A DNA stretch of 64,000 nt from contig JACPFQ010000004.1 of the NCBI GenBank assembly GCA_016182875.1, forward strand, positions 259,515 to 323,514. The letters are read 5' to 3'. The notes below the pieces were generated by a model. That model had not been told where the DNA came from and searched no databases. It saw nothing but the letters and a program-made list of their open reading frames with translations. Within the stretch, counting starts at the first letter, position 1; each line of letters starts with the position of its first letter. Both the position numbers and the translations under genes were made by a program. This stretch comes from Candidatus Doudnabacteria bacterium. Its GTDB lineage: Bacteria; Patescibacteriota; Doudnabacteria; UBA920; O2-02-FULL-48-8. Shown here one piece after another: positions 14,924 to 30,138 of the stretch.

Positions 14924-15574
14924 ATGAATAGTAAATTTTTAGCAGTTATTGCAGTAATAGTTTTGGGAGTCGTCGCTGGTGTTTTTTATTTTAAGAATCG
15001 AAGTCAAGAGTCAGGAAACAGTAATCAGGAACCAGTCGAACAGGAACAATCAACTCAAGCTGTTACACCTCAGCCGCCACCGCAGCAGTCAAGCGTTCCC
15101 GAACAAGCCACGGCAGTGATTGAAGTCGAGGGCTACGGAACCATTAACTTGAGCCTTGATGGCAAGGCCGCACCCAAGACCGTGGCGAATTTCATCAAAC
15201 TTTCCAAAGACGGCTTTTATAACGGCCTCAAATTCCACCGTGTGGTTCCAAACTTCGTGATTCAAGGCGGCGACCCGGAAGGCACGGGGCTGGGCGGCCC
15301 TGGCTATACGGTTCCTGCCGAAATCAGCCTTAAGCACAAGAAGGGCGCGATTGCCATGGCCCGCACGGACGATTCGGTCAATCCCAGCCGCGCTTCTTCC
15401 GGCAGCCAGTTTTATATCGCTGTGCAGGATTTGACGAGTTTGGACGGGCAATACACGGTCTTCGGATACGTCACGTCCGGCATGGATGTCGTGATTCAGA
15501 TTAGCGAAGTTCCGACCGAACCCGGCGATTACCCGATTAAGGATATTGTTATTAAGAGAATTATGATAGAGTAA
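14924..15574 (+). CDS. peptidyl-prolyl cis-trans isomerase, cyclophilin type, with N-terminal TM and low-complexity linker
   Basis: 216 aa; FHRVVPNFVIQGGDPEGTGLGGPGY...FYI cyclophilin core. Confidence 0.85.
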   Translation: MNSKFLAVIAVIVLGVVAGVFYFKNRSQESGNSNQEPVEQEQSTQAVTPQPPPQQSSVPEQATAVIEVEGYGTINLSLDGKAAPKTVANFIKLSKDGFYNGLKFHRVVPNFVIQGGDPEGTGLGGPGYTVPAEISLKHKKGAIAMARTDDSVNPSRASSGSQFYIAVQDLTSLDGQYTVFGYVTSGMDVVIQISEVPTEPGDYPIKDIVIKRIMIE

Positions 15575-15579
15575 TACAA

Positions 15580-15700
15580 ATTAGAATTTCCCTCCCCTTG
15601 CAGGGGAGGGACCAAGGGTGGGGTGGATAGAGGCAACCTCATCCCACCTCTCCCCCGACCCCTCTCCTGGAAGGAGAGGGGAGATCTAATCTGAAGTAAA
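15580..15700. mobile_element. solo (ORF-less) member of the hairpin/G-rich/C-rich element family
   Basis: ccctcccct tgc aggggaggg ... gggtggggtggat ... atcccacctc ... cccctctcc tgga aggagagggg; about 85% identical to 20664-20770. Confidence 0.6.
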
Positions 15701-15707
15701 CAAAGCT

Positions 15708-16301
15708 ATGACTAAGCACCCAAGAGAAGAGCGAACTTATGTCATGATCAAGCCGGACGGGGTTAAGCGCGGGTTGATTGGAGAAATTATTAAGCGCATT
15801 GAGCAGAGAGGATTGAAAGTTGTCGCGCTGGAAATGGAACATCCGACTCATAAGCAGATGGACGATCACTATCCCAAAGATCCCAAATGGATTACTAGGC
15901 TCGGCGAAAAAACACTCTCGACCTATGCCAAATTCGGTTATGACGCCATGAAAGAGCTAGGAACTGACAAAGCCGAAAAAATTGGGCCAATGGTGCGCGA
16001 ATGGTTGATTAATTATATGAGTTCAGCGCCGTTGGTAAAGATTGTCGTCGAAGGGATCCACGCCATAGACATGGTCAAAAAATTAGCAGGCAAGACTATG
16101 CCGATTGATGCTGAAATGGGCACGATCCGCGGGGATTTTTCTGCCGATTCTGCTGCCGCAGCTAATCGAGACAGACGCGCGGTGCATAATTTGGTTCATA
16201 TTTCCGAAACGCCGGAAGAAGCAGAACACGAAATCGCTCACTGGTTTACGCAGGATCAAATCCATGATTACAAGCGGGTGGAAGAAGACCTGATGATTTA
16301 G
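15708..16301 (+). CDS. ndk: nucleoside diphosphate kinase (with internal insertion)
   Basis: 197 aa; ERTYVMIKPDGVKRGLIGEII and NLVHISE active-site region. Confidence 0.75.
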   Translation: MTKHPREERTYVMIKPDGVKRGLIGEIIKRIEQRGLKVVALEMEHPTHKQMDDHYPKDPKWITRLGEKTLSTYAKFGYDAMKELGTDKAEKIGPMVREWLINYMSSAPLVKIVVEGIHAIDMVKKLAGKTMPIDAEMGTIRGDFSADSAAAANRDRRAVHNLVHISETPEEAEHEIAHWFTQDQIHDYKRVEEDLMI

Positions 16302-21076: not shown

Positions 21077-22822
<1,746 letters not shown>

Positions 22823-22860: not shown

Positions 22861-23277
22861 ATGGCAGAACTCTTACATAAAGAGTTATCATATATAGTGC
22901 ATGGTGCGGCTATTGAAGTTCGAAAAGATTTTGGGCCAGGACACAAAGAAAAACTATATCAAACAGCATTTGCGCAGGAACTCGACCGCCGAAGTATAAA
23001 TTTCAAACAAGAGCCAGCAGTAAATATCTATTCACCTAAGGATGGACAAAAAGTCGGGTTATATTGACCCGACTTTGTTGTTGACGGTAAAATACTTGTC
23101 GAAATGAAGGCTGAAAAATTCGTTAATCGTGATGAGATCAAAAGAATCTATGATTATTTGCGAAACAGTAAATATGAATTAGCCTATTTTATAAACTTCG
23201 CTTCACCTAAGCTCTACGTCAGACGCATCATCTTTACTAATGATAGAAAGCTTTCAATGCCCAGTAAGTTCGTGTAA
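22861..23277 (+). pseudogene. GxxExxY protein (PD-(D/E)xK-like, TIGR04256-like) with in-frame TGA at 23065-23067
   Basis: ELSYIVHGAAIEVRKDFGPGHKEKLYQTAFAQEL...VGLY[TGA]PDFVVDGKILVEMKA...AYFINFASPKLYVRRII reads through in a single frame. Confidence 0.7.
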
Positions 23278-23345: not shown

Positions 23346-23481
23346 TTGACAGCGCCGGCAAAAAGGTATATACTTTTGAGTTCTTTTTAAAATCGCATAT
23401 TATGCCAATTTCGTAACAGGACCGAAGTTTGGCGTTAAAAATTATACAAAAACAGCTCCTGTATTACGAGCTGTTTTTGTT
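23346..23481 (+). ncRNA. candidate small RNA unit (promoter TTGACA-17-TATACT to intrinsic terminator, about 100 nt transcript)
   Basis: ttgaca at 23346, tatact at 23369; hairpin acagctc ctgtattac gagctgt plus T-run at 23452-23481; no ORF longer than 5 codons. Confidence 0.25.
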
Positions 23482-23614
23482 TCCACTATTCTGGGTACTA
23501 ACTTGATTTAGCCCGCCCGAACGTACCGTTCGGTACGGGCGGGCAGGGAAATCATTTTATTGCCCTCTTAAGCAATCAAGCCTAAGTACCCAGAATTGTG
23601 GAAGTAACAGCAAG
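23479..23614 (+). repeat. array leader repeat copy A (gtttccactattctgggtac ... gtacccagaattgtggaagtaacagcaag) with nested GC hairpin insert
   Basis: Inverted arms flank a conserved core; ends 43 bp before the ORF 23657 start. Confidence 0.7.
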
Positions 23615-23656
23615 TTCTTTTGTTTTAGCGCTTTAAATGCGCAGCGGGAGTGTGAG

Positions 23657-24013
23657 ATGAAGAATATGCGATGTATTGCGTTGTACTTCGCCTTGGTCGC
23701 CTCGCTTGGTTTCAATGTCTACTACATGTTCAAAATGTCGGCGGGCCGCGTCGGCCAGGTCATGACAAGGGTCGGCAACATCCCGAACAACGAAGTGCAG
23801 TTCGAGCTCTTCGAAGTCAGCGCTGTCGGTCAGTCGAAGATGCTCTATGGCTGTTTGGAACTCCGCGCGGTGGAGAAGACCATGGCCTACCTCGGGACCA
23901 CGTATAGCGCGGACTATACGTACTTCACCGAACAGGGGTGGGTCACCATGCTGGTCGATCCGGTTCCGGTGACGTTCGCCGGCCTTCGATACATCAACCA
24001 GCGTATCGAGTAG
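23657..24013 (+). CDS. array ORF1: small secreted/membrane protein (118 aa)
   Basis: Signal-peptide-like N-terminus; GC about 60%. Confidence 0.5.
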   Translation: MKNMRCIALYFALVASLGFNVYYMFKMSAGRVGQVMTRVGNIPNNEVQFELFEVSAVGQSKMLYGCLELRAVEKTMAYLGTTYSADYTYFTEQGWVTMLVDPVPVTFAGLRYINQRIE

Positions 24014-24248
24014 TGCCAACAACCGGCGGCGCCGGAAACTGAGGGTAAGTAGGAGGAAGTTCCCAACCGCTTGGCGGCGGTCACAAATCATTTCGGATTA
24101 CTTCATTCTAAGTAATCCACCCAGAAGTGCGCCAACACTTCTCCTGTCCTGTGAGCTAGTACTCTAATACTGCGCCGTATTAGAGTGAAGCTTAGAGGAT
24201 AGGACATTAACAAACTTCTAATTTCTAATTACTAATTTCTAAAATTTT

Positions 24249-24340
24249 GTTTCCACGATTCTGGGCGTTAGTTAGAACTAAGGATGAATTCAGTAATACT
24301 GCCTTGAAAGTTAAATTGATACCCAGAATCGTGGAAGTGA
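24249..24340 (+). repeat. array leader repeat copy D (gtttccacgattctggg ... cccagaatcgtggaagtg)
   Basis: 13-bp perfect inverted arms; ends 40 bp before ORF 24380. Confidence 0.7.
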
Positions 24341-24379
24341 AAGATTGTCAGCACCTGACAAGGTGCAAAGTGAGGCAAC

Positions 24380-24613
24380 ATGAAGGGATTAAGCGCTCTC
24401 CTCGGAATCGCGATGATACTTCTGGCTCTCCGGGTTAGCTCTGTTGTTGAAGCCAACCCTGATCCATATAGGGAGATTCTCCCCGGGGTGATTGCGGTCG
24501 CCTCGATCGTCTGTCTCGTAATGGCCGCCGCCGGCCTGCTGCTGTACGCGATCTCGCCGCCGAGTAATCGGGACAACCTGCCGCGGCAGACGTCCTGTCG
24601 GTGGCACAAGTAA
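24380..24613 (+). CDS. array ORF2: small membrane protein (77 aa, two predicted TM helices)
   Basis: Hydrophobic; GC-rich. Confidence 0.45.
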   Translation: MKGLSALLGIAMILLALRVSSVVEANPDPYREILPGVIAVASIVCLVMAAAGLLLYAISPPSNRDNLPRQTSCRWHK

Positions 24614-24738
24614 GGCCAACGACGGCACTATGAATGGAGGACACAGAATGCATTAAGTAACTCGCGAACCATCGCGAATTGAATAGTGGGGCCAGAGCAA
24701 GCCAAACCTCTGTCCCCACATCCCGTTTCCAATATTTT

Positions 24739-24833
24739 GTTTCCACTATTCTGGGTACTAACTTGATTTAGCAGGGAAATCATTTTATTGCCCTCTTAAG
24801 CAATCAAGCCTAAGCACCCAGAATTGTGGAATT
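24739..24833 (+). repeat. array leader repeat copy B
   Basis: gtttccactattctgggtactaacttgatttagcagggaaatcattttattgccctcttaagcaatcaagcctaagcacccagaattgtgga; about 95% identical to copy A without its insert. Confidence 0.75.
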
Positions 24834-25101
24834 GAAAGGGAGGATGGACATGACGCGTGCGCAGCGCAAGAGATACGAAAGGAAGATGCAGAAGAAGGCC
24901 GAACGGGGCCTGATTGCGCCGACTCTCGTGATCGTCGGCGGGCTGGCCTTGGCGCAGGTCGGTTACTCGTTGATCTCTGAGCCGTTCAGGATCATCGAGT
25001 TCATCGGCCTCGGCATCGTCGCTCTCGCCGGAGCCGATTGGTTGAGAGTATTCGTGTACATGTATCGCAACCGGCCGACCTACGAGGATCGGCTGCTCTA
25101 G
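24826..25101 (+). CDS. array ORF3: small membrane protein (probable start MDMTRAQ at 24847)
   Basis: RBS gggagg; basic N-terminus followed by two TM helices. Confidence 0.45.
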   Translation: MELKGRMDMTRAQRKRYERKMQKKAERGLIAPTLVIVGGLALAQVGYSLISEPFRIIEFIGLGIVALAGADWLRVFVYMYRNRPTYEDRLL

Positions 25102-25109
25102 GAGGGCAG

Positions 25110-25460
25110 ATGAAGCTCAGAACCATCGGTTGGGTGCTCGCGTTTGTCGCCGCGGCCATTGTCGGCGCGATCGGCGACAACATGTACATGCAGGCGCGGC
25201 TTGAAGCCCAGCTCGGCTCATGCCCCGCCACGGTCCAGGTCCTGCAAGACGCCCTCGACAACTCGGCTGTGCTGAAAGAACAGCTGACCGAGTGGTTCGT
25301 GGCCACCGACGAACAAACCAAGCCGCTTCGGCTGACCTCCTTCACTGTCAGCCAAAAGGGCGAGGAGAAGCGCTGGGTCGGAGCCGCGGTCGAGAAGGAC
25401 CTGCTGCTCTCGCCGATCGGCAGAATCGTCGGCCGTGTCGTCGGCGAAGCCGGTCCCTAG
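25110..25460 (+). CDS. array ORF4: membrane-anchored small protein (116 aa)
   Basis: RBS ggaggg 6 nt upstream of ATG 25110; N-terminal TM helix. Confidence 0.45.
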   Translation: MKLRTIGWVLAFVAAAIVGAIGDNMYMQARLEAQLGSCPATVQVLQDALDNSAVLKEQLTEWFVATDEQTKPLRLTSFTVSQKGEEKRWVGAAVEKDLLLSPIGRIVGRVVGEAGP

Positions 25461-25610
25461 CGTTCCGTGAGGCGCGATGAGTGAGAGGTCTATTCGACTC
25501 TCCTCATCCGCTCTCTTCCTAAATTTTCGAGATTCGAAGATTTTGGAAGGGAGCAATCCCGAAACGGATTTAAATACTTTAATACATTATCGTATTAAAG
25601 TGAATAGGTT

Positions 25611-25739
25611 AATAGTTAACAGCCACGAGCCAAGCTCGTGTCCGCCATTCTGGGTACTAACTTGATTTAGCAGGGAAATCAAATTATGCCCTCAAAGCAA
25701 TCAAGCCATTGCACCCAGAGTCGTGGAAGTAACAGCAAG
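25611..25739 (+). repeat. array leader repeat copy C (with upstream conserved module aatagttaacagccacgagccaagctcgtg)
   Basis: Same core as A/B; the upstream module is shared with copy G (26905-26945). Confidence 0.7.
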
Positions 25740-25776
25740 ATCTTTGATAAAAAAAGTCGCCTTGGTTAGGCGACGG

Positions 25777-26158
25777 CTAGTATAGAATATAGTTAGTAAG
25801 GCAGAACAATTCCGAGTTTGTCGGCCACTTTTTTGGCCCAAGCTTCCAGGACTTCCAGGCGTTTGCGCATGATGATATGCTCTTCCTGGAAAGTTTTGAC
25901 GATTTTAGTAAGCCCGTCAGGTTTGTTAAGAGAATGTCAATCTTTGAATCAGTATGCGCTAAATCCTCTTTAGTGACAAAGACTTCTTTCTCAGCTTCGA
26001 TTAAATTTTTGATGTCCTGGGGAGTAAGCATTTATGCTGTTAATTAATATTAAAATTTGATCTATATGTTTTTGAACCTTAGTAATATCCGCTTCCAGCT
26101 TGTCGAACTTCTCGTCCAAGTATCCCAATAATGGTTTAAAATTAATCTCAGCCATAAT
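25777..26158 (-). pseudogene. AT-rich coiled-coil protein remnant broken into at least three frames
   Basis: MAEINFKPLLGYLDEKFDKLEADITKVQ... / MLTPQDIKNLIEAEKEVFVTKEDL... / KIVKTFQEEHIIMRKRLEVLEAWAKKVADKLGIVLPY lie in different frames on the minus strand. Confidence 0.25.
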
Positions 26159-26204
26159 AGTGCATTTATTCTAGTCCTTTGAAAATTTCCAGTCAATATA
26201 TTTT

Positions 26205-26252
26205 GTTTCTACGGTTCTGGGCGTTAGAATTAGCACCCAGAATTGTGGAGGC
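26205..26252 (+). repeat. array leader repeat copy F (short form: gtttctacggttctgggcgttagaattagcacccagaattgtggaggc)
   Basis: Minimal inverted-arm version; ends 19 bp before ORF 26271. Confidence 0.65.
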
Positions 26253-26270
26253 AAACAAGCTTCTACTAAT

Positions 26271-26669
26271 ATGCAGGAGGACTGCATGACGATAAACCAT
26301 GAGTTTAAGGTCGGCGATCGTGTCAGGTTTTCTCGAGCCGGAATTGGCGACTCGATTGACCTTTCTGAGGAAAGAGTCGCTCAACTGAGACAGAAAATCG
26401 CTCAGTTGAAAGATCAGGCAGTCGAGAAAGAACTGGCTGTAGACCAGCAGATTGAACTGGAAGCGAGCATGGATGAATTGGATTACATCCTCTTGCTCAG
26501 TTCAAACTCAATCTACTGCGTAGTCGAAAAGAGAACGCAGTGTACGATTTTCGAGAACACCAGCGGTGTCTCGAAAGAAGTTTTGGCCCAGGACATCAAG
26601 CTTGAAGATGTTTTTGTGCCAAATCTCTACGACGAGCTTTTCCCGGTTGACTGGTTCGAACTCGCTTAA
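26271..26669 (+). CDS. array ORF6: hypothetical soluble protein (132 aa)
   Basis: RBS gcaggagg; no TM segment. Confidence 0.45.
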   Translation: MQEDCMTINHEFKVGDRVRFSRAGIGDSIDLSEERVAQLRQKIAQLKDQAVEKELAVDQQIELEASMDELDYILLLSSNSIYCVVEKRTQCTIFENTSGVSKEVLAQDIKLEDVFVPNLYDELFPVDWFELA

Positions 26670-26797
26670 GTAGTCCTGTTCGGAAATCTCTCAAGGTTGG
26701 TTGGGTTAGAAGCAAGCCCCGTGTGGTGTAGCCGTCGTGCAATTACCAAGAAGTGCAGTTAGGTCCAAGGTGTAAGTTGATTAATTTCTCTTCCACC

Positions 26798-26853
26798 TTT
26801 CTATTTCCCTTCAATGGGACTGATGAGTCCGTGAAATCCGGACGAAATAGAAA
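26798..26853 (+). ncRNA. candidate minimal type III hammerhead ribozyme
   Basis: Stem III tttctat/atagaaa; U17; stem I tccc-ttcaat-ggga; CUGAUGA at 26820-26826; stem II GUCCG-ugaaauc-CGGAC with G10.1:C11.1; GAAA at 26844-26847. Confidence 0.55.
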
Positions 26854-26855
26854 TT

Positions 26856-27085
26856 GTTTCCACGATTCTGAATACTTAATGTTGTAATACAGGAACTAAA
26901 TAGTTAACAGTCACGAGCTAAGCTCGTGTCCACCATTCTGGGCACTTATCTTGGTTTAGTCCCGACGCTACGGTTCCGACGCAAGGTCGGAACAGGTCGG
27001 GACAGGCAGGGAATCATATATAAATGCCCTCGAGCCTTAAGCAATCAATGCTCTAAGTACCCAGAATTGTGGAAGTAACAGCAAG
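26856..27085 (+). repeat. array leader repeat copy G (composite, 230 bp, extra nested hairpins gtcccgac...gtcgggac)
   Basis: gtttccacgattctg ... aatagttaacagtcacgagctaagctcgtgtccaccattctgggcac ... gtacccagaattgtggaagtaacagcaag; ends 18 bp before ORF 27104. Confidence 0.7.
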
Positions 27086-27103
27086 TTCTTTTGAGCGCGA
27101 AAT

Positions 27104-27439
27104 GTGCGCGTGAGGTGTGACATGCAGATTCAGGATTTTATCTTGATCGCCCTCGGGATTGCGGCGTTCCTCTCCATCACGTTGAGGGTCGCGCGAGCTC
27201 TCTGGACTCTCGGGTCCAGCGCGCGCGGTCTGCTCGGACTACTCGGGCTGGTCGTCGGTGGGTTCGTTCTTATCTGGCTCGTGACTCTCATGCCGGAATC
27301 GGTAATTCCGGTTCAGGGCAAGCGTCTCTTACAGATCGCCGGTATCCTCATGATGCTTGGCGGACTGTATCAAACAATGCAGATGAGGTTCCGGGAAGCG
27401 CATCTGCCGCCAGGTTCCAAGGAGGATGCGGCGCGGTAA
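27104..27439 (+). CDS. array ORF7: small membrane protein (111 aa, 3 TM helices)
   Basis: Hydrophobic; GC-rich. Confidence 0.45.
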   Translation: MRVRCDMQIQDFILIALGIAAFLSITLRVARALWTLGSSARGLLGLLGLVVGGFVLIWLVTLMPESVIPVQGKRLLQIAGILMMLGGLYQTMQMRFREAHLPPGSKEDAAR

Positions 27440-27658
27440 CGCGTCGTAAAAGTGCAAAGGTGGCGAGATGGTTCATACCCACGATGGGTCACTGACCGTT
27501 TTGCCTTCCTTCCCTTGGACTGCACTTATAATACTTTAACGTATTGAAGTGGAGTCCAGAGGATCGGAAGTTAAATCAGTAATAAGAAACTAGTAATAAG
27601 TAATTAGGACAAAAGATTCTAATTACTATATACTTTTTACTAATTACTAATCACTTTT

Positions 27659-27752
27659 GTTTCTAGAATGCGAGTGTAGTTGGCTTAAGTTAAGAGAGAA
27701 CATCATTTTTCAGTCTCAGAACTAACAAGCTAAATACATTCCATTGTGGACG
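27659..27752 (+). repeat. array leader repeat copy I (degenerate)
   Basis: gtttctagaatg...ccattgtggacgcg, preceded by the AT-rich taattactaat motif as in copy D. Confidence 0.4.
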
Positions 27753-27769
27753 CGAATTGAGGTGATGAG

Positions 27770-27976
27770 GTGACTATGAAGAACCCATTGTTCAAACCCG
27801 GAGATCGGTGCACGTTCACCAACCGCAGCGGGAATAGCGCACGCAGCGGTGAAAAATGCACGGTGGTCACTGTGGTTCCGCCGGATGAGCATGATGGCGG
27901 TGTCGCCTACATCGTCGAGTTCGAAAACGGCCACAGGATATCAGTTCATGAAGAAGAGCTCATGCAGACGCATTGA
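27770..27976 (+). CDS. array ORF8: small soluble protein (68 aa)
   Basis: ORF immediately 3' of the degenerate repeat. Confidence 0.4.
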   Translation: MTMKNPLFKPGDRCTFTNRSGNSARSGEKCTVVTVVPPDEHDGGVAYIVEFENGHRISVHEEELMQTH

Positions 27977-28299
27977 GGACTAACATGCATATCGAGATTG
28001 ATTCGTCCTGGAAGTTCCGGTTGCTCCTCGGTGGTTTGCTCCTGGCGATTTACTTCCTCTGGGAGTACGTCGCAAGCCAGCCGCACCACCTCGTCATCAA
28101 GTAGGAGGATTCCTTCCAGCCAGGAAAGCAAGATTTTCCAATCAGCTCACCTTCACCTGGCTTATCCAGCAGGATTGACTCAAGATTAATCCTGCTCCTG
28201 CCCTTGCGCTTAAAACTATATTGAGCTTGAGGGCGGGTCAGTGGTATAATATAGTGTTAAAGCACTTTTATATAATAAAGTCTTTGAGACTTTGGATAC

Positions 28300-28332
28300 T
28301 TAGTTGGTTAAGCGGCCAGAATCGTGGAGGCT
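28300..28332 (+). repeat. array leader repeat copy H (3' arm only: gccagaatcgtggaggc)
   Basis: Partial match to the conserved 3' arm; 18 bp before ORF 28351. Confidence 0.35.
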
Positions 28333-28350
28333 TAACCAAAGGAGGTTGCG

Positions 28351-28614
28351 ATGCCTGAGATCATCGGCTCAGCCGAAGCTGCCAGTTTGACCACCATAGG
28401 CGCGCTGCTTTTCATCCGCTTTGTGTTCGTTGGCCTCTGCCATGTCGAAGACAAAGCCCGCTCCTTCAGCCGACGGGTCTACGGACAGGAAGAAGCGTCC
28501 GAAATCCCGGCAAGCGTCACTGCTCCCGCCGGAAAGATCGTTTCTTTCCCTGCCATCGCCGCGCCCGCACCAATCTCGCGAGAGCGAGAAAAGCAGCCCC
28601 CAATTGCTGCGTAG
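28351..28614 (+). CDS. array ORF9: small membrane protein (87 aa)
   Basis: RBS aaaggagg; N-terminal TM helix. Confidence 0.4.
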   Translation: MPEIIGSAEAASLTTIGALLFIRFVFVGLCHVEDKARSFSRRVYGQEEASEIPASVTAPAGKIVSFPAIAAPAPISREREKQPPIAA

Positions 28615-28743
28615 GCGCTACCAAGAAGGTGGTTCGCTTCTCTAGAGCCACCTTCCCCTCCTTATGTGTTTGACCAAAAGGTCGAATGCATAAGGAGGGA
28701 TATATTTCCGCCCTCGTGTCGTTAACCTCTTAGAGAGGAGAGT

Positions 28744-28938
28744 ATGCAGAAGAAGGCTACCGTCGGCGTGGAATCGTCCGTCGCAAGGCCTGTCGTTCGC
28801 ATCCGTTATTGGTGGGACCCGTGGTCGTTGCTTCCCCCAATGTCTGAAAAGACACACAGGCGGGTATGCAACACCCTCATGGTAATCGCCGCGGCCATTT
28901 TGTTAACATGGGTCGTCGGCGGATTCCTCTTCGAGTAA
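28744..28938 (+). CDS. array ORF10: small membrane protein (64 aa)
   Basis: RBS gagaggagag; C-terminal TM helix. Confidence 0.4.
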   Translation: MQKKATVGVESSVARPVVRIRYWWDPWSLLPPMSEKTHRRVCNTLMVIAAAILLTWVVGGFLFE

Positions 28939-29012
28939 TCCCTTCCCCGGGCGCTTCCCAGCGCGCCCAAGTACTTATACAAAAACCAACTTTATTAGCA
29001 AGGGGGGCTCCA

Positions 29013-29204
29013 ATGGAGCACGAAGCGCCTGACCTCTTGGTCGTCTTGAGGGTCTGCGCACCGATCGGCGTCGCCTTCGGCATTTATGGCATCATCAGCA
29101 ACTTGCCAATGATGCGAGAAGTGGCGACGATCTGTTTGCTCATATCGCTTGCGGTGTGGGCAGGGCCAATCGTGCGACGCATCAAGCGGAGGGGGGTGGG
29201 CTAG
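29013..29204 (+). CDS. array ORF11: small membrane protein (63 aa; internal start of track ORF 28866..29204)
   Basis: RBS gggggg then ATG at 29013; two TM helices. Confidence 0.4.
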   Translation: MEHEAPDLLVVLRVCAPIGVAFGIYGIISNLPMMREVATICLLISLAVWAGPIVRRIKRRGVG

Positions 29205-29393
29205 TACGGCCATTCCTCCTCCGGAAGTTTTCTTTAGATATCTGCCGGCGAATCTGACAAATTTTCTTTGAAGATTTATCAGATCTCCTGTTCGCCGGCA
29301 GATACTTGAAGAAAACCAAGCGCCTTTGACGAGGCGCTCTTTTTATGCTAAAGTTTTCAGGCAACTATCAACTATTAACTATAACCTAATTCG

Positions 29394-29591
29394 ATGGCTG
29401 TACCAAAAAAGCATAAAACTAGATCGGGCCGCAATCAACGGCGGGCTCATGACTTTTTGATTAAGACCAACTTGGCAGTTTGCAGCAACTGCAAATACCC
29501 CGTGATGCCGCATGAGGTTTGCCAGAACTGCGGATACTACAAAGGACGGCAGGTTTTGAGGATCAAGGCAAAAACTAAGGCATCGAAATAA
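29394..29591 (+). CDS. rpmF: 50S ribosomal protein L32
   Basis: 65 aa; MAVPKKHKTRSGRNQRRAHD...CSNC...CQNCGYYKG. Confidence 0.85.
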   Translation: MAVPKKHKTRSGRNQRRAHDFLIKTNLAVCSNCKYPVMPHEVCQNCGYYKGRQVLRIKAKTKASK

Positions 29592-29682
29592 TTTTAAATT
29601 TCGAGTTTTGAATTTCGAGTGAATTTTAGAATTTATAATAATTCGAAATTGAATCAAAATTCAAAATTATGAATTCATAATT

Positions 29683-30138
29683 ATGGCTAATAGGCACCTT
29701 TCCAGAACAATTGCGATGCAGTCGCTGTATGAGTGGGATTTCAACGACCGAGCCAAACCGCTTTCGGACATCACGCAGTACAATGTAAAGCAGTTCGCCC
29801 CGGGCCTCGATGATCCCGCTTTTATTTTTAATTTGATTAAGGGAGTGGAAGAGCATATGGCCGACATCGACAAGATAATCCAAGAGACCGCTCCCGAATG
29901 GCCGCTCGACCAGATCACGGTCGTGGACAGAAATATTCTCCGCCTGGGCATTTATGAATTGCTGTTCGCCCATGAAGTCCCGCCCAAGGTGGCGATCAAT
30001 GAAGCGGTGGAACTCGGCAAGGCGTTTGGCGGCGAGTCATCCGGTAAGTTTATCAACGGAGTACTGGGAACTTTATATAAGAATCTTCCGCAAGCGGAGC
30101 AAGACAAAGAAAAACCGGAAGATAGCGAAAAAGTTTGA
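29683..30138 (+). CDS. nusB: transcription antitermination factor NusB
   Basis: 151 aa; [17 protein letters not shown]... typical NusB helical fold signature. Confidence 0.8.

Follow-up and report, generated by a model that had tools for sequence, protein, structure and literature searches.

Hammerheads are among the best-known ribozymes, and hundreds of them have been catalogued in bacteria and phages. The classical type III forms belong to viroid, satellite and plant RNAs, and the sTRSV hammerhead is the parent of RiboJ, an engineered ribozyme insulator. The Candidate Phyla Radiation (CPR, Patescibacteria) comprises bacteria whose genomes are tiny and whose RNA biology has hardly been studied by experiment. 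The subject of the present analysis is a 56-nt element on the + strand of the genome of Candidatus Doudnabacteria, an uncultivated groundwater bacterium of this group, at positions 26798-26853 of the 64-kb stretch of DNA that was analysed (hereafter the window). The element is a complete type III hammerhead motif and, judged from sequence comparison, is taken here to be a functional self-cleaving ribozyme with a probability of about 0.8. It lies inside a ~6-kb array of small + strand open reading frames (ORFs) between groEL (21176-22822, identified by homology) and rpmF/nusB (29394-30138; rpmF read from the sequence); the ORFs of this array carry no Pfam families, and many of them contain hydrophobic stretches.

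The closest described genomic parallel is provided by bacterial and prophage hammerheads, which flank single genes or short gene blocks and cleave polycistronic transcripts of ~2 kb in vitro; type II hammerheads have been described in the same work (Perreault et al. 2011, PMC3088659). The window ribozyme resembles these in lying between small genes of unknown function and in their orientation, and in its proposed role, the cutting of transcripts into gene- or operon-length mRNAs. The phage contigs retrieved here carry 2-8 hammerheads at a spacing of ~0.3-2 kb between small genes, and nearly all of them are of type I, whereas the window ribozyme is of type III. The array also differs in having one ribozyme rather than one per junction, the other junctions being occupied by a structured repeat, and in the lack of integrase or phage genes in its scanned flanks. 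A stem II module consisting of GUCCG, a 7-nt loop and CGGAC is common to the window and many phage type I hammerheads (loops UGAAAUU, UGAGAUU and UGAAACU). Two IMG/VR contigs, L089 (1336-6896) and L107 (7443-10615), hold 6-8 type I hammerheads each with the same stem II module.

Compact type III hammerheads were found in the viral contigs L105 (6001-6050 and 6569-6612), L121 and L122, and share with the window ribozyme a short stem I (4-6 bp) capped by a small loop and a stem II of 5-6 bp. A covariance model based on the window ribozyme gives them 28-33 bits, but their stem and loop sequences are different, no homology extends outside the core, and they are cleaved at GUC or GUA, or at CUC in L121 and L122, where the window has AUU. 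With the Rfam family Hammerhead_3 (RF00008, clan CL00010; curated gathering score 48.5 bits) the window element shares the core, the A15.1-U16.1 and G10.1-C11.1 pairs, the three helices with stem III open, and a match over the full length of the model, whose consensus GuCc-cUGAaAu-gGaC is resembled by GUCCG-UGAAAUC-CGGAC of the window. It departs from the model in its triplet (AUU instead of GUC) and in a stem I of 4 bp instead of 5. The classical type III hammerheads are set apart by their location, the present one being at a chromosomal intergenic site of a CPR genome. With RiboJ the likeness is functional only, in that self-cleavage would give the downstream message a defined 5′ end; the window element is natural, and it appears to close a gene unit on the 3′ side instead of following a promoter directly.

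Read as RNA of the + strand, the motif is UUUCUAU-U-UCCC-UUCAAU-GGGA-CUGAUGA-GUCCG-UGAAAUC-CGGAC-GAA-AUAGAAA, with the strand order III5′-H17-I-core-II-GAA-III3′, stems I and II being closed by loops and stem III open (Table 1). All pairs in stems III, I and II are standard. The conserved core positions C3 U4 G5 A6 N7 G8 A9 and G12 A13 A14 all carry the required bases, A26847 pairs with U26804 to form A15.1-U16.1, and U at position 17 satisfies the NUH rule; the resulting AUU triplet is allowed by that rule, yet it is not the common GUC. The first-pass annotation of this DNA, made from the letters alone, had described these elements, and reading of the + strand places each of them at the coordinates it gave; its stem lengths of 7, 4 and 5 bp, its predicted cleavage position after U26805 and the 51 nt that it gave from there to the next repeat arm agree with the sequence. 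The type III topology that it assigned was likewise borne out when core, helices, the 15.1-16.1 and 10.1-11.1 pairs and position 17 were each checked.

Infernal aligned the motif to the whole RF00008 model (1-54 at 26798-26853) with 38.0 bits, corresponding to an E-value of 4.8e-7 in a 251-nt search and of 1.2e-4 for the 64-kb window, taken on both strands and times 4227 families; no other match to the hammerhead clan occurs in the window. This search had been proposed in the first-pass annotation, which named the lack of a hit above threshold, together with the lack of self-cleavage of the transcribed fragment, as what would speak against the motif. What it returned is a match that is significant for the window and stays under the 48.5-bit threshold. 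A default Rfam scan of the window consequently lists only two tRNAs and one AdoCbl-II riboswitch, and the hammerhead is left out. The shortfall is plausibly due to the AUU triplet and the short stem I, and the element is probably to be filed as an RF00008 member that falls short in one formal respect, the gathering score. Since a default scan misses a conserved hammerhead, the number of compact type III hammerheads with AUU sites is probably underestimated.

A descriptor independent of Rfam, which asked for a CUGANGA core, GAA, uninterrupted pairing outwards from each junction and a base other than G at position 17, matched the window at a single type III site, again 26798-26853. With relaxed limits (stem I and stem II of at least 3 pairs, stem III of at least 4, loops of at most 12 nt), the type III descriptor gave no match in 300 dinucleotide-preserving shuffles of the window (38 Mb in all). 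A chance match would fit a score below the Rfam gathering score, but the E-value of 1.2e-4, the 0 of 300 shuffles and the conservation of a second, independent copy in a related genome exclude it for practical purposes, in line with the earlier statement that a chance occurrence was very unlikely.

The conserved copy was found by a core-pattern search that covered 80 groEL loci. By its GroEL the window belongs to Candidatus Doudnabacteria; its best relatives have GroEL proteins 82-89% identical, and one of them, the Doudnabacteria genome CAYOPE010000001.1 (hereafter L004, GroEL 82% identical), holds the one further hammerhead site among these loci, at 15775-15830. The L004 hammerhead lies ~4 kb downstream of groEL and 3′ of a homologue (15254-15637) of the very ORF that precedes the element in the window; it scores 33.4 bits with RF00008 (E = 3.9e-4), likewise under the 48.5-bit threshold. 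The two hammerheads are identical at 51 of 56 positions (91%) and constitute the best-conserved 56-nt window of a 972-column alignment, whereas the upstream ORFs are only 39% identical in protein and 49% in DNA, the 3′ untranslated regions 39%, and the sequences after the hammerhead 31%.

The differences fall in loop 1 (one change, C>A), loop 2 (two changes, A>G and U>C) and stem III, where a U.G wobble takes the place of one U-A pair and the outermost pair no longer forms; the core and both hairpin stems are identical in the two copies. In the hammerhead register 96.9% of cells are paired, compared with 28-63% in slid registers (two distinct sequences). As the U.G pair on the + strand would be an A-C mismatch on the - strand, the + strand is indicated as the functional one. 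This substitution pattern is what would be expected for purifying selection on the hammerhead fold. Coding constraint was considered as another source of the conservation, a 44-codon ORF (26753-26887) running over the motif; this ORF has no start codon in L004 and all four substitutions in the hammerhead body are non-synonymous, so coding does not explain it.

The same alignment bears on whether the element is a decayed, catalytically dead hammerhead, left behind for instance by a phage or mobile element. Such a relic would be expected to drift, and the 91% identity over 56 nt next to gene DNA at 49% and flanks that cannot be aligned, with a core, stem I and stem II free of any change, is the opposite of drift. 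The sub-threshold Rfam score, the unusual combination of U17 with an AUU triplet, the short stem I, the more stable competing fold described below and the single copy in the window would all suit a relic, which is nevertheless considered decidedly unlikely.

A different possibility is that the conserved block has some other function, as a protein-binding RNA, an alternative-fold switch or a site acting at the DNA level, and that its likeness to a hammerhead is incidental. Conserved bases do build the alternative fold (-17.2 kcal/mol), the block adjoins a repeat arm, itself a possible recombination or regulatory element, and no covariation specific to the hammerhead helices is seen. However, an incidental match of 11 strictly required core bases and three in-register helices would, under loose limits too, be expected less than once in 300 windows, and the boundaries of conservation coincide with the ends of the hammerhead, which makes this reading highly improbable.

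Several observations weigh against a functional self-cleaving hammerhead. The RF00008 score lies 10.5 bits below the gathering threshold. For the isolated 56-mer, the minimum free energy (MFE) structure at -17.2 kcal/mol is 2.8 kcal/mol more stable than the hammerhead fold at -14.4 kcal/mol by nearest-neighbour energies, with a GGACU/AGUCC helix in place of stems I and II. Stem I is just 4 bp long, and the simple Watson-Crick pairing between loop 1 and loop 2 is lost in L004. A U17 within AUU is uncommon and, according to mutational studies, less efficient than GUC in minimal constructs. The comparison with L004 offers no compensatory double change, only the one U-A to U.G replacement, and so no covariation support; this lack is attributable to there being just two independent copies. 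The ribozyme also stands at only one array junction, so that general processing of the array cannot depend on it.

Set beside the fold energies, the centroid structure computed in a 141-nt context contains both stems I and II. The loops have the same lengths in L004 (6 nt for loop 1, 7 nt for loop 2), and loop 2, UGAAAUC, resembles loop 2 of the Rfam type III consensus and of many phage hammerheads. Direct Watson-Crick pairing of the two loops (UUCA/UGAA) was considered and rejected, being broken by the C>A change in L004; a loop-loop contact in the hammerhead is possible. The slow minimal form of the earlier description is possible and not established, both stems being capped by loops of conserved length.

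Further copies were sought by several routes. In viral contigs, a pattern with stem II fixed returned 38 loci, nearly all of them type I phage hammerheads and none related; a pattern with stem I fixed returned two type III hammerheads, both unrelated; and a degenerate stem I combined with a free stem II gave a single chance match. A purine/pyrimidine-degenerate pattern yielded two unrelated matches in viral contigs and four unrelated ones in JGI metagenomes, and blastn of the motif against GenBank phages gave nothing significant. The covariance model R1, built from the two copies and run over 1.0 Mb of groEL loci from Patescibacteria, brought up no other copy. An Rfam scan of eight related loci at gathering thresholds detected tRNAs only, and a scan of L004 at an E-value threshold gave nothing beyond tRNAs and the hammerhead itself. 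When the upstream gene was searched against 5.8 billion protein clusters, both singly and as a profile of two sequences, only the window and L004 proteins came back; an exact look-up of the 132-aa gene found two short Logan contigs, which are identical to the window in DNA and hence uninformative on covariation, and that of the groEL protein found no record. On the 2.7-kb IMG/VR contig L124 (1253-1308, - strand), the sequence CUGAUGA-GCUCG-UGAAAUC-CGAGC-GAAA scores 26.9 bits with R1; its loop 2 is identical to that of the window, in stem II two pairs have both bases replaced, and inspection found no proper stems I and III there. The literature searched contains no report of hammerheads in Patescibacteria/CPR, nor of hammerheads associated with integron-like arrays.

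Viroid-like RNAs and retrozymes typically carry type III hammerheads, and the element might accordingly belong to a viroid-like or retrozyme-like replicon, a small circular RNA or retroelement, that had integrated into the array, where it would process multimers and not mRNA. Against this, there is just one hammerhead, no second ribozyme of any Rfam class occurs in the window or in the arrays of its relatives, no direct repeats bracket a ribozyme-bearing unit, and the chromosomal position downstream of groEL is the same in two genomes. An origin of this kind is given very little credence.

The homology between the window and L004 runs from the left arm of the repeat before the ORF to the final base of the hammerhead. 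As it ends exactly there, the ribozyme seems to form the 3′ end of a gene unit common to the two genomes. The motif is intergenic, has the same orientation as the flanking genes and begins 128 nt past the stop codon of ORF 26286-26669, whose protein corresponds to HYV13_03150 of an NCBI metagenome-assembled genome (MAG) of a Candidatus Doudnabacteria bacterium. The suggestion in the first-pass annotation that the element could process a polycistronic transcript is compatible with this intergenic, co-oriented position, with the lack of a terminator-like site between the upstream stop codon and the motif, and with a strong promoter-like site that precedes the array in both genomes.

In the mechanism proposed, the array would be transcribed on the + strand and the RNA would fold co-transcriptionally into three helices around the CUGAUGA/GAA core. 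The 2′-OH of U26805 would then attack the adjacent phosphate, and this internal transesterification would cut the chain between 26805 and 26806. The upstream product would be the mRNA of gene 26286-26669 with its 3′ untranslated region, ending in a 2′,3′-cyclic phosphate; the downstream product would carry a 5′-OH, the two hammerhead hairpins, and then the structured leader and the next small membrane-protein gene. Since stem III has seven pairs of which six are A-U, the products should separate, making cleavage effectively irreversible. Cleavage would uncouple the fate of the upstream message from a changing downstream neighbour, that is, the ribozyme would act as an insulator or processing element. 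Given the hypervariable content of the array, insulating a unit from its downstream neighbour is a reasonable role, although for such an insulating or transcript-processing function the case is evenly balanced.

A broader reading, put forward tentatively and on the whole doubtful, is that the hammerhead serves as the built-in 3′ insulator of a mobile or exchangeable gene unit. The array would then be of an undescribed kind, located downstream of groEL throughout Candidatus Doudnabacteria, with a conserved RNA element of several stems, not represented in Rfam 15, ahead of each hypervariable small, mostly membrane-protein gene, and the hammerhead would be the first self-cleaving ribozyme described in the CPR, as far as the literature searched goes. 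If this were true, the ribozyme would be direct evidence of long array transcripts that need processing. One more hammerhead by itself changes little; of note is its setting in a CPR chromosome, within a hypervariable small-gene array rather than a prophage. The exact RNA end predicted at 26805/26806 provides a handle on whether the array is transcribed as a polycistron. The surrounding array, with its structured repeats and hypervariable small genes, is more unusual than the ribozyme.

Table 1. Elements of the hammerhead and neighbouring features, in window coordinates.
Feature	Position	Strand	Remarks
Stem III, 5′ strand UUUCUAU, last base U16.1	26798-26804	+	pairs with 26847-26853
U17, predicted cleavage 3′ of this base (26805/26806), triplet AUU	26805	+	register relative to core; identical in L004
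Stem I hairpin UCCC/GGGA, 4 bp, 6-nt loop 1 UUCAAU	26806-26819 (26806-26809 with 26816-26819)	+	stem invariant in L004
Core strand C3-A9, CUGAUGA	26820-26826	+	invariant in L004
Stem II hairpin GUCCG/CGGAC, 5 bp, G10.1-C11.1, 7-nt loop 2 UGAAAUC	26827-26843 (26827-31 with 26839-43)	+	
Core strand G12 A13 A14 (GAA)	26844-26846	+	invariant in L004
Stem III, 3′ strand AUAGAAA, first base A15.1	26847-26853	+	
Upstream gene, 127-132 aa, soluble, acidic, no Pfam family	26286-26669	+	39% identical to L004 15254-15637
3′ untranslated spacer from gene to hammerhead, no terminator-like site	26670-26797	+	39% identity to L004
Truncated left arm of structured repeat	26851-26892	+	arm start 26856, 3 nt after hammerhead, 51 nt after predicted cleavage site; boundary of the unit common with L004
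Full structured repeat (leader) before next gene	26918-27084	+	covariance model R2, 51.4 bits; repeat families D2, D4
Downstream small membrane-protein gene, 105 aa	27122-27439	+	would fall on 3′ cleavage product
Copies of the structured repeat	23471-23613, 24241-24346, 24731-24841, 25630-25738, 26197-26260, 26918-27084	+	weak copy 27651-27761
Promoter-like site TTGACA-17-TATACT, 11/12	23346-23374	+	consensus match only; upstream of array; kept in L004
Terminator-like site after array	29319-29338		

The structured repeat is a palindromic, multi-stem element of ~60-165 nt that, over the first two-thirds of the array, stands in front of most ORFs. The arms GUUUCCACNAUUCUGGG and CCCAGAAUYGUGGAAG form the outer stem and CUUGAUU and AAUCAAG the inner one, and a CAGGG...CCCU hairpin is also present. 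The repeat occurs downstream of groEL in the related loci L003-L013, L017, L020, L022 and L026 as well. RNAalifold, applied to 11 copies from 8 loci, predicted 28 pairs, 8 of them with compensatory changes, and many G.U pairs on the + strand. A covariance model of the repeat detected 1-5 copies per locus, all of them co-oriented with groEL and at most ~5 kb downstream of it; the loci that bear it reach down to ~65% GroEL identity, and + strand scores are 2-3 times the - strand scores. Neither Rfam 15 nor the viral contigs gave a match to it. The repeat may represent a structured leader RNA of a new kind, or else a recombination site of an unusual type.

Canonical attC sites were considered for the repeat and rejected: its arms read GTTTCCAC ... 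GTGGAAG and not RYYYAAC ... GTTRRRY, it stands 5′ of each ORF and not 3′, and its G.U/G.T pairs put the fold on the sense (+) strand, the bottom strand being the folding one in attC. Ten flanking ORFs, a part of those in the window, were scanned with Pfam; six of them matched (housekeeping-type proteins, a PD-(D/E)XK fragment and a lamin-tail-domain protein), four did not, and no IntI was among them. A canonical integron, with attC sites and IntI, was thus rejected for the array, the core sites being different and the scanned flanks without an integrase. The DUF1874 motif has been discussed as a possible unusual attC (PMC5737381), and the arrangement of the array recalls it. In L004 the neighbouring gene encodes an SLT-domain protein.

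The loop of the CAGGG hairpin, AAAUCA, echoes the 3′ strand of the inner stem, AAUCAAG (for example at 24775-24815 of the window). In L006 (11987-12097), the hairpin loop and both strands of the inner stem have changed together (UUAGUU / AACUAA / AACUAAG). This suggests that the repeat has two mutually exclusive pairings and may act as a switch.

The gene content of the array is hypervariable when the window (23600-29300) is compared with L003-L029, while the repeat elements are conserved. Homologues in related loci exist for just one of ten array ORFs, that preceding the hammerhead. The array ORFs have G+C contents between 37.5 and 64%, compared with 49% over the whole window. Directly after the hammerhead, 26851-26892 constitutes an orphan left arm of a repeat variant (GTTTCCACGATTCTGAATACTTAATGTTGTAATACAG), homologous to L007 6474-6515, L008 13170-13210 and L004 16704-16741. 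In these three loci the same left arm has a matching right arm (GTGTTCAG..TTGTGGAAG); as none is present in the window, the window copy resembles a scar of recombination or deletion.

At the head of the array, 23346-23478 combines the promoter-like TTGACA-17-TATACT with, ~70-90 nt further on, a hairpin followed by a T-run, just before the first repeat. This arrangement is kept in L004 (13369-13503), with a partial match in L006 and L007, and could represent a small RNA gene or an attenuator. A further unit, A+T-rich and on the - strand (25777-26155), contains two overlapping small ORFs (84 and 54 aa) that match no Pfam family; it has a promoter-like site (26196-26168) and a terminator-like hairpin (25774-25756) of its own and is partly kept in L006 (13638-13913). 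Between groEL and the array, a PD-(D/E)XK gene (PDDEXK_3, GxxExxY-type; 22861-23277, + strand) is split into ORFs of 68 and 57 aa and is probably a pseudogene; ~600 nt of this region are 70% identical in L007. Finally, the AdoCbl-II (cobalamin) riboswitch aptamer of the window lies at 1391-1445 on the - strand and scores 42.8 bits against a gathering score of 36.5.

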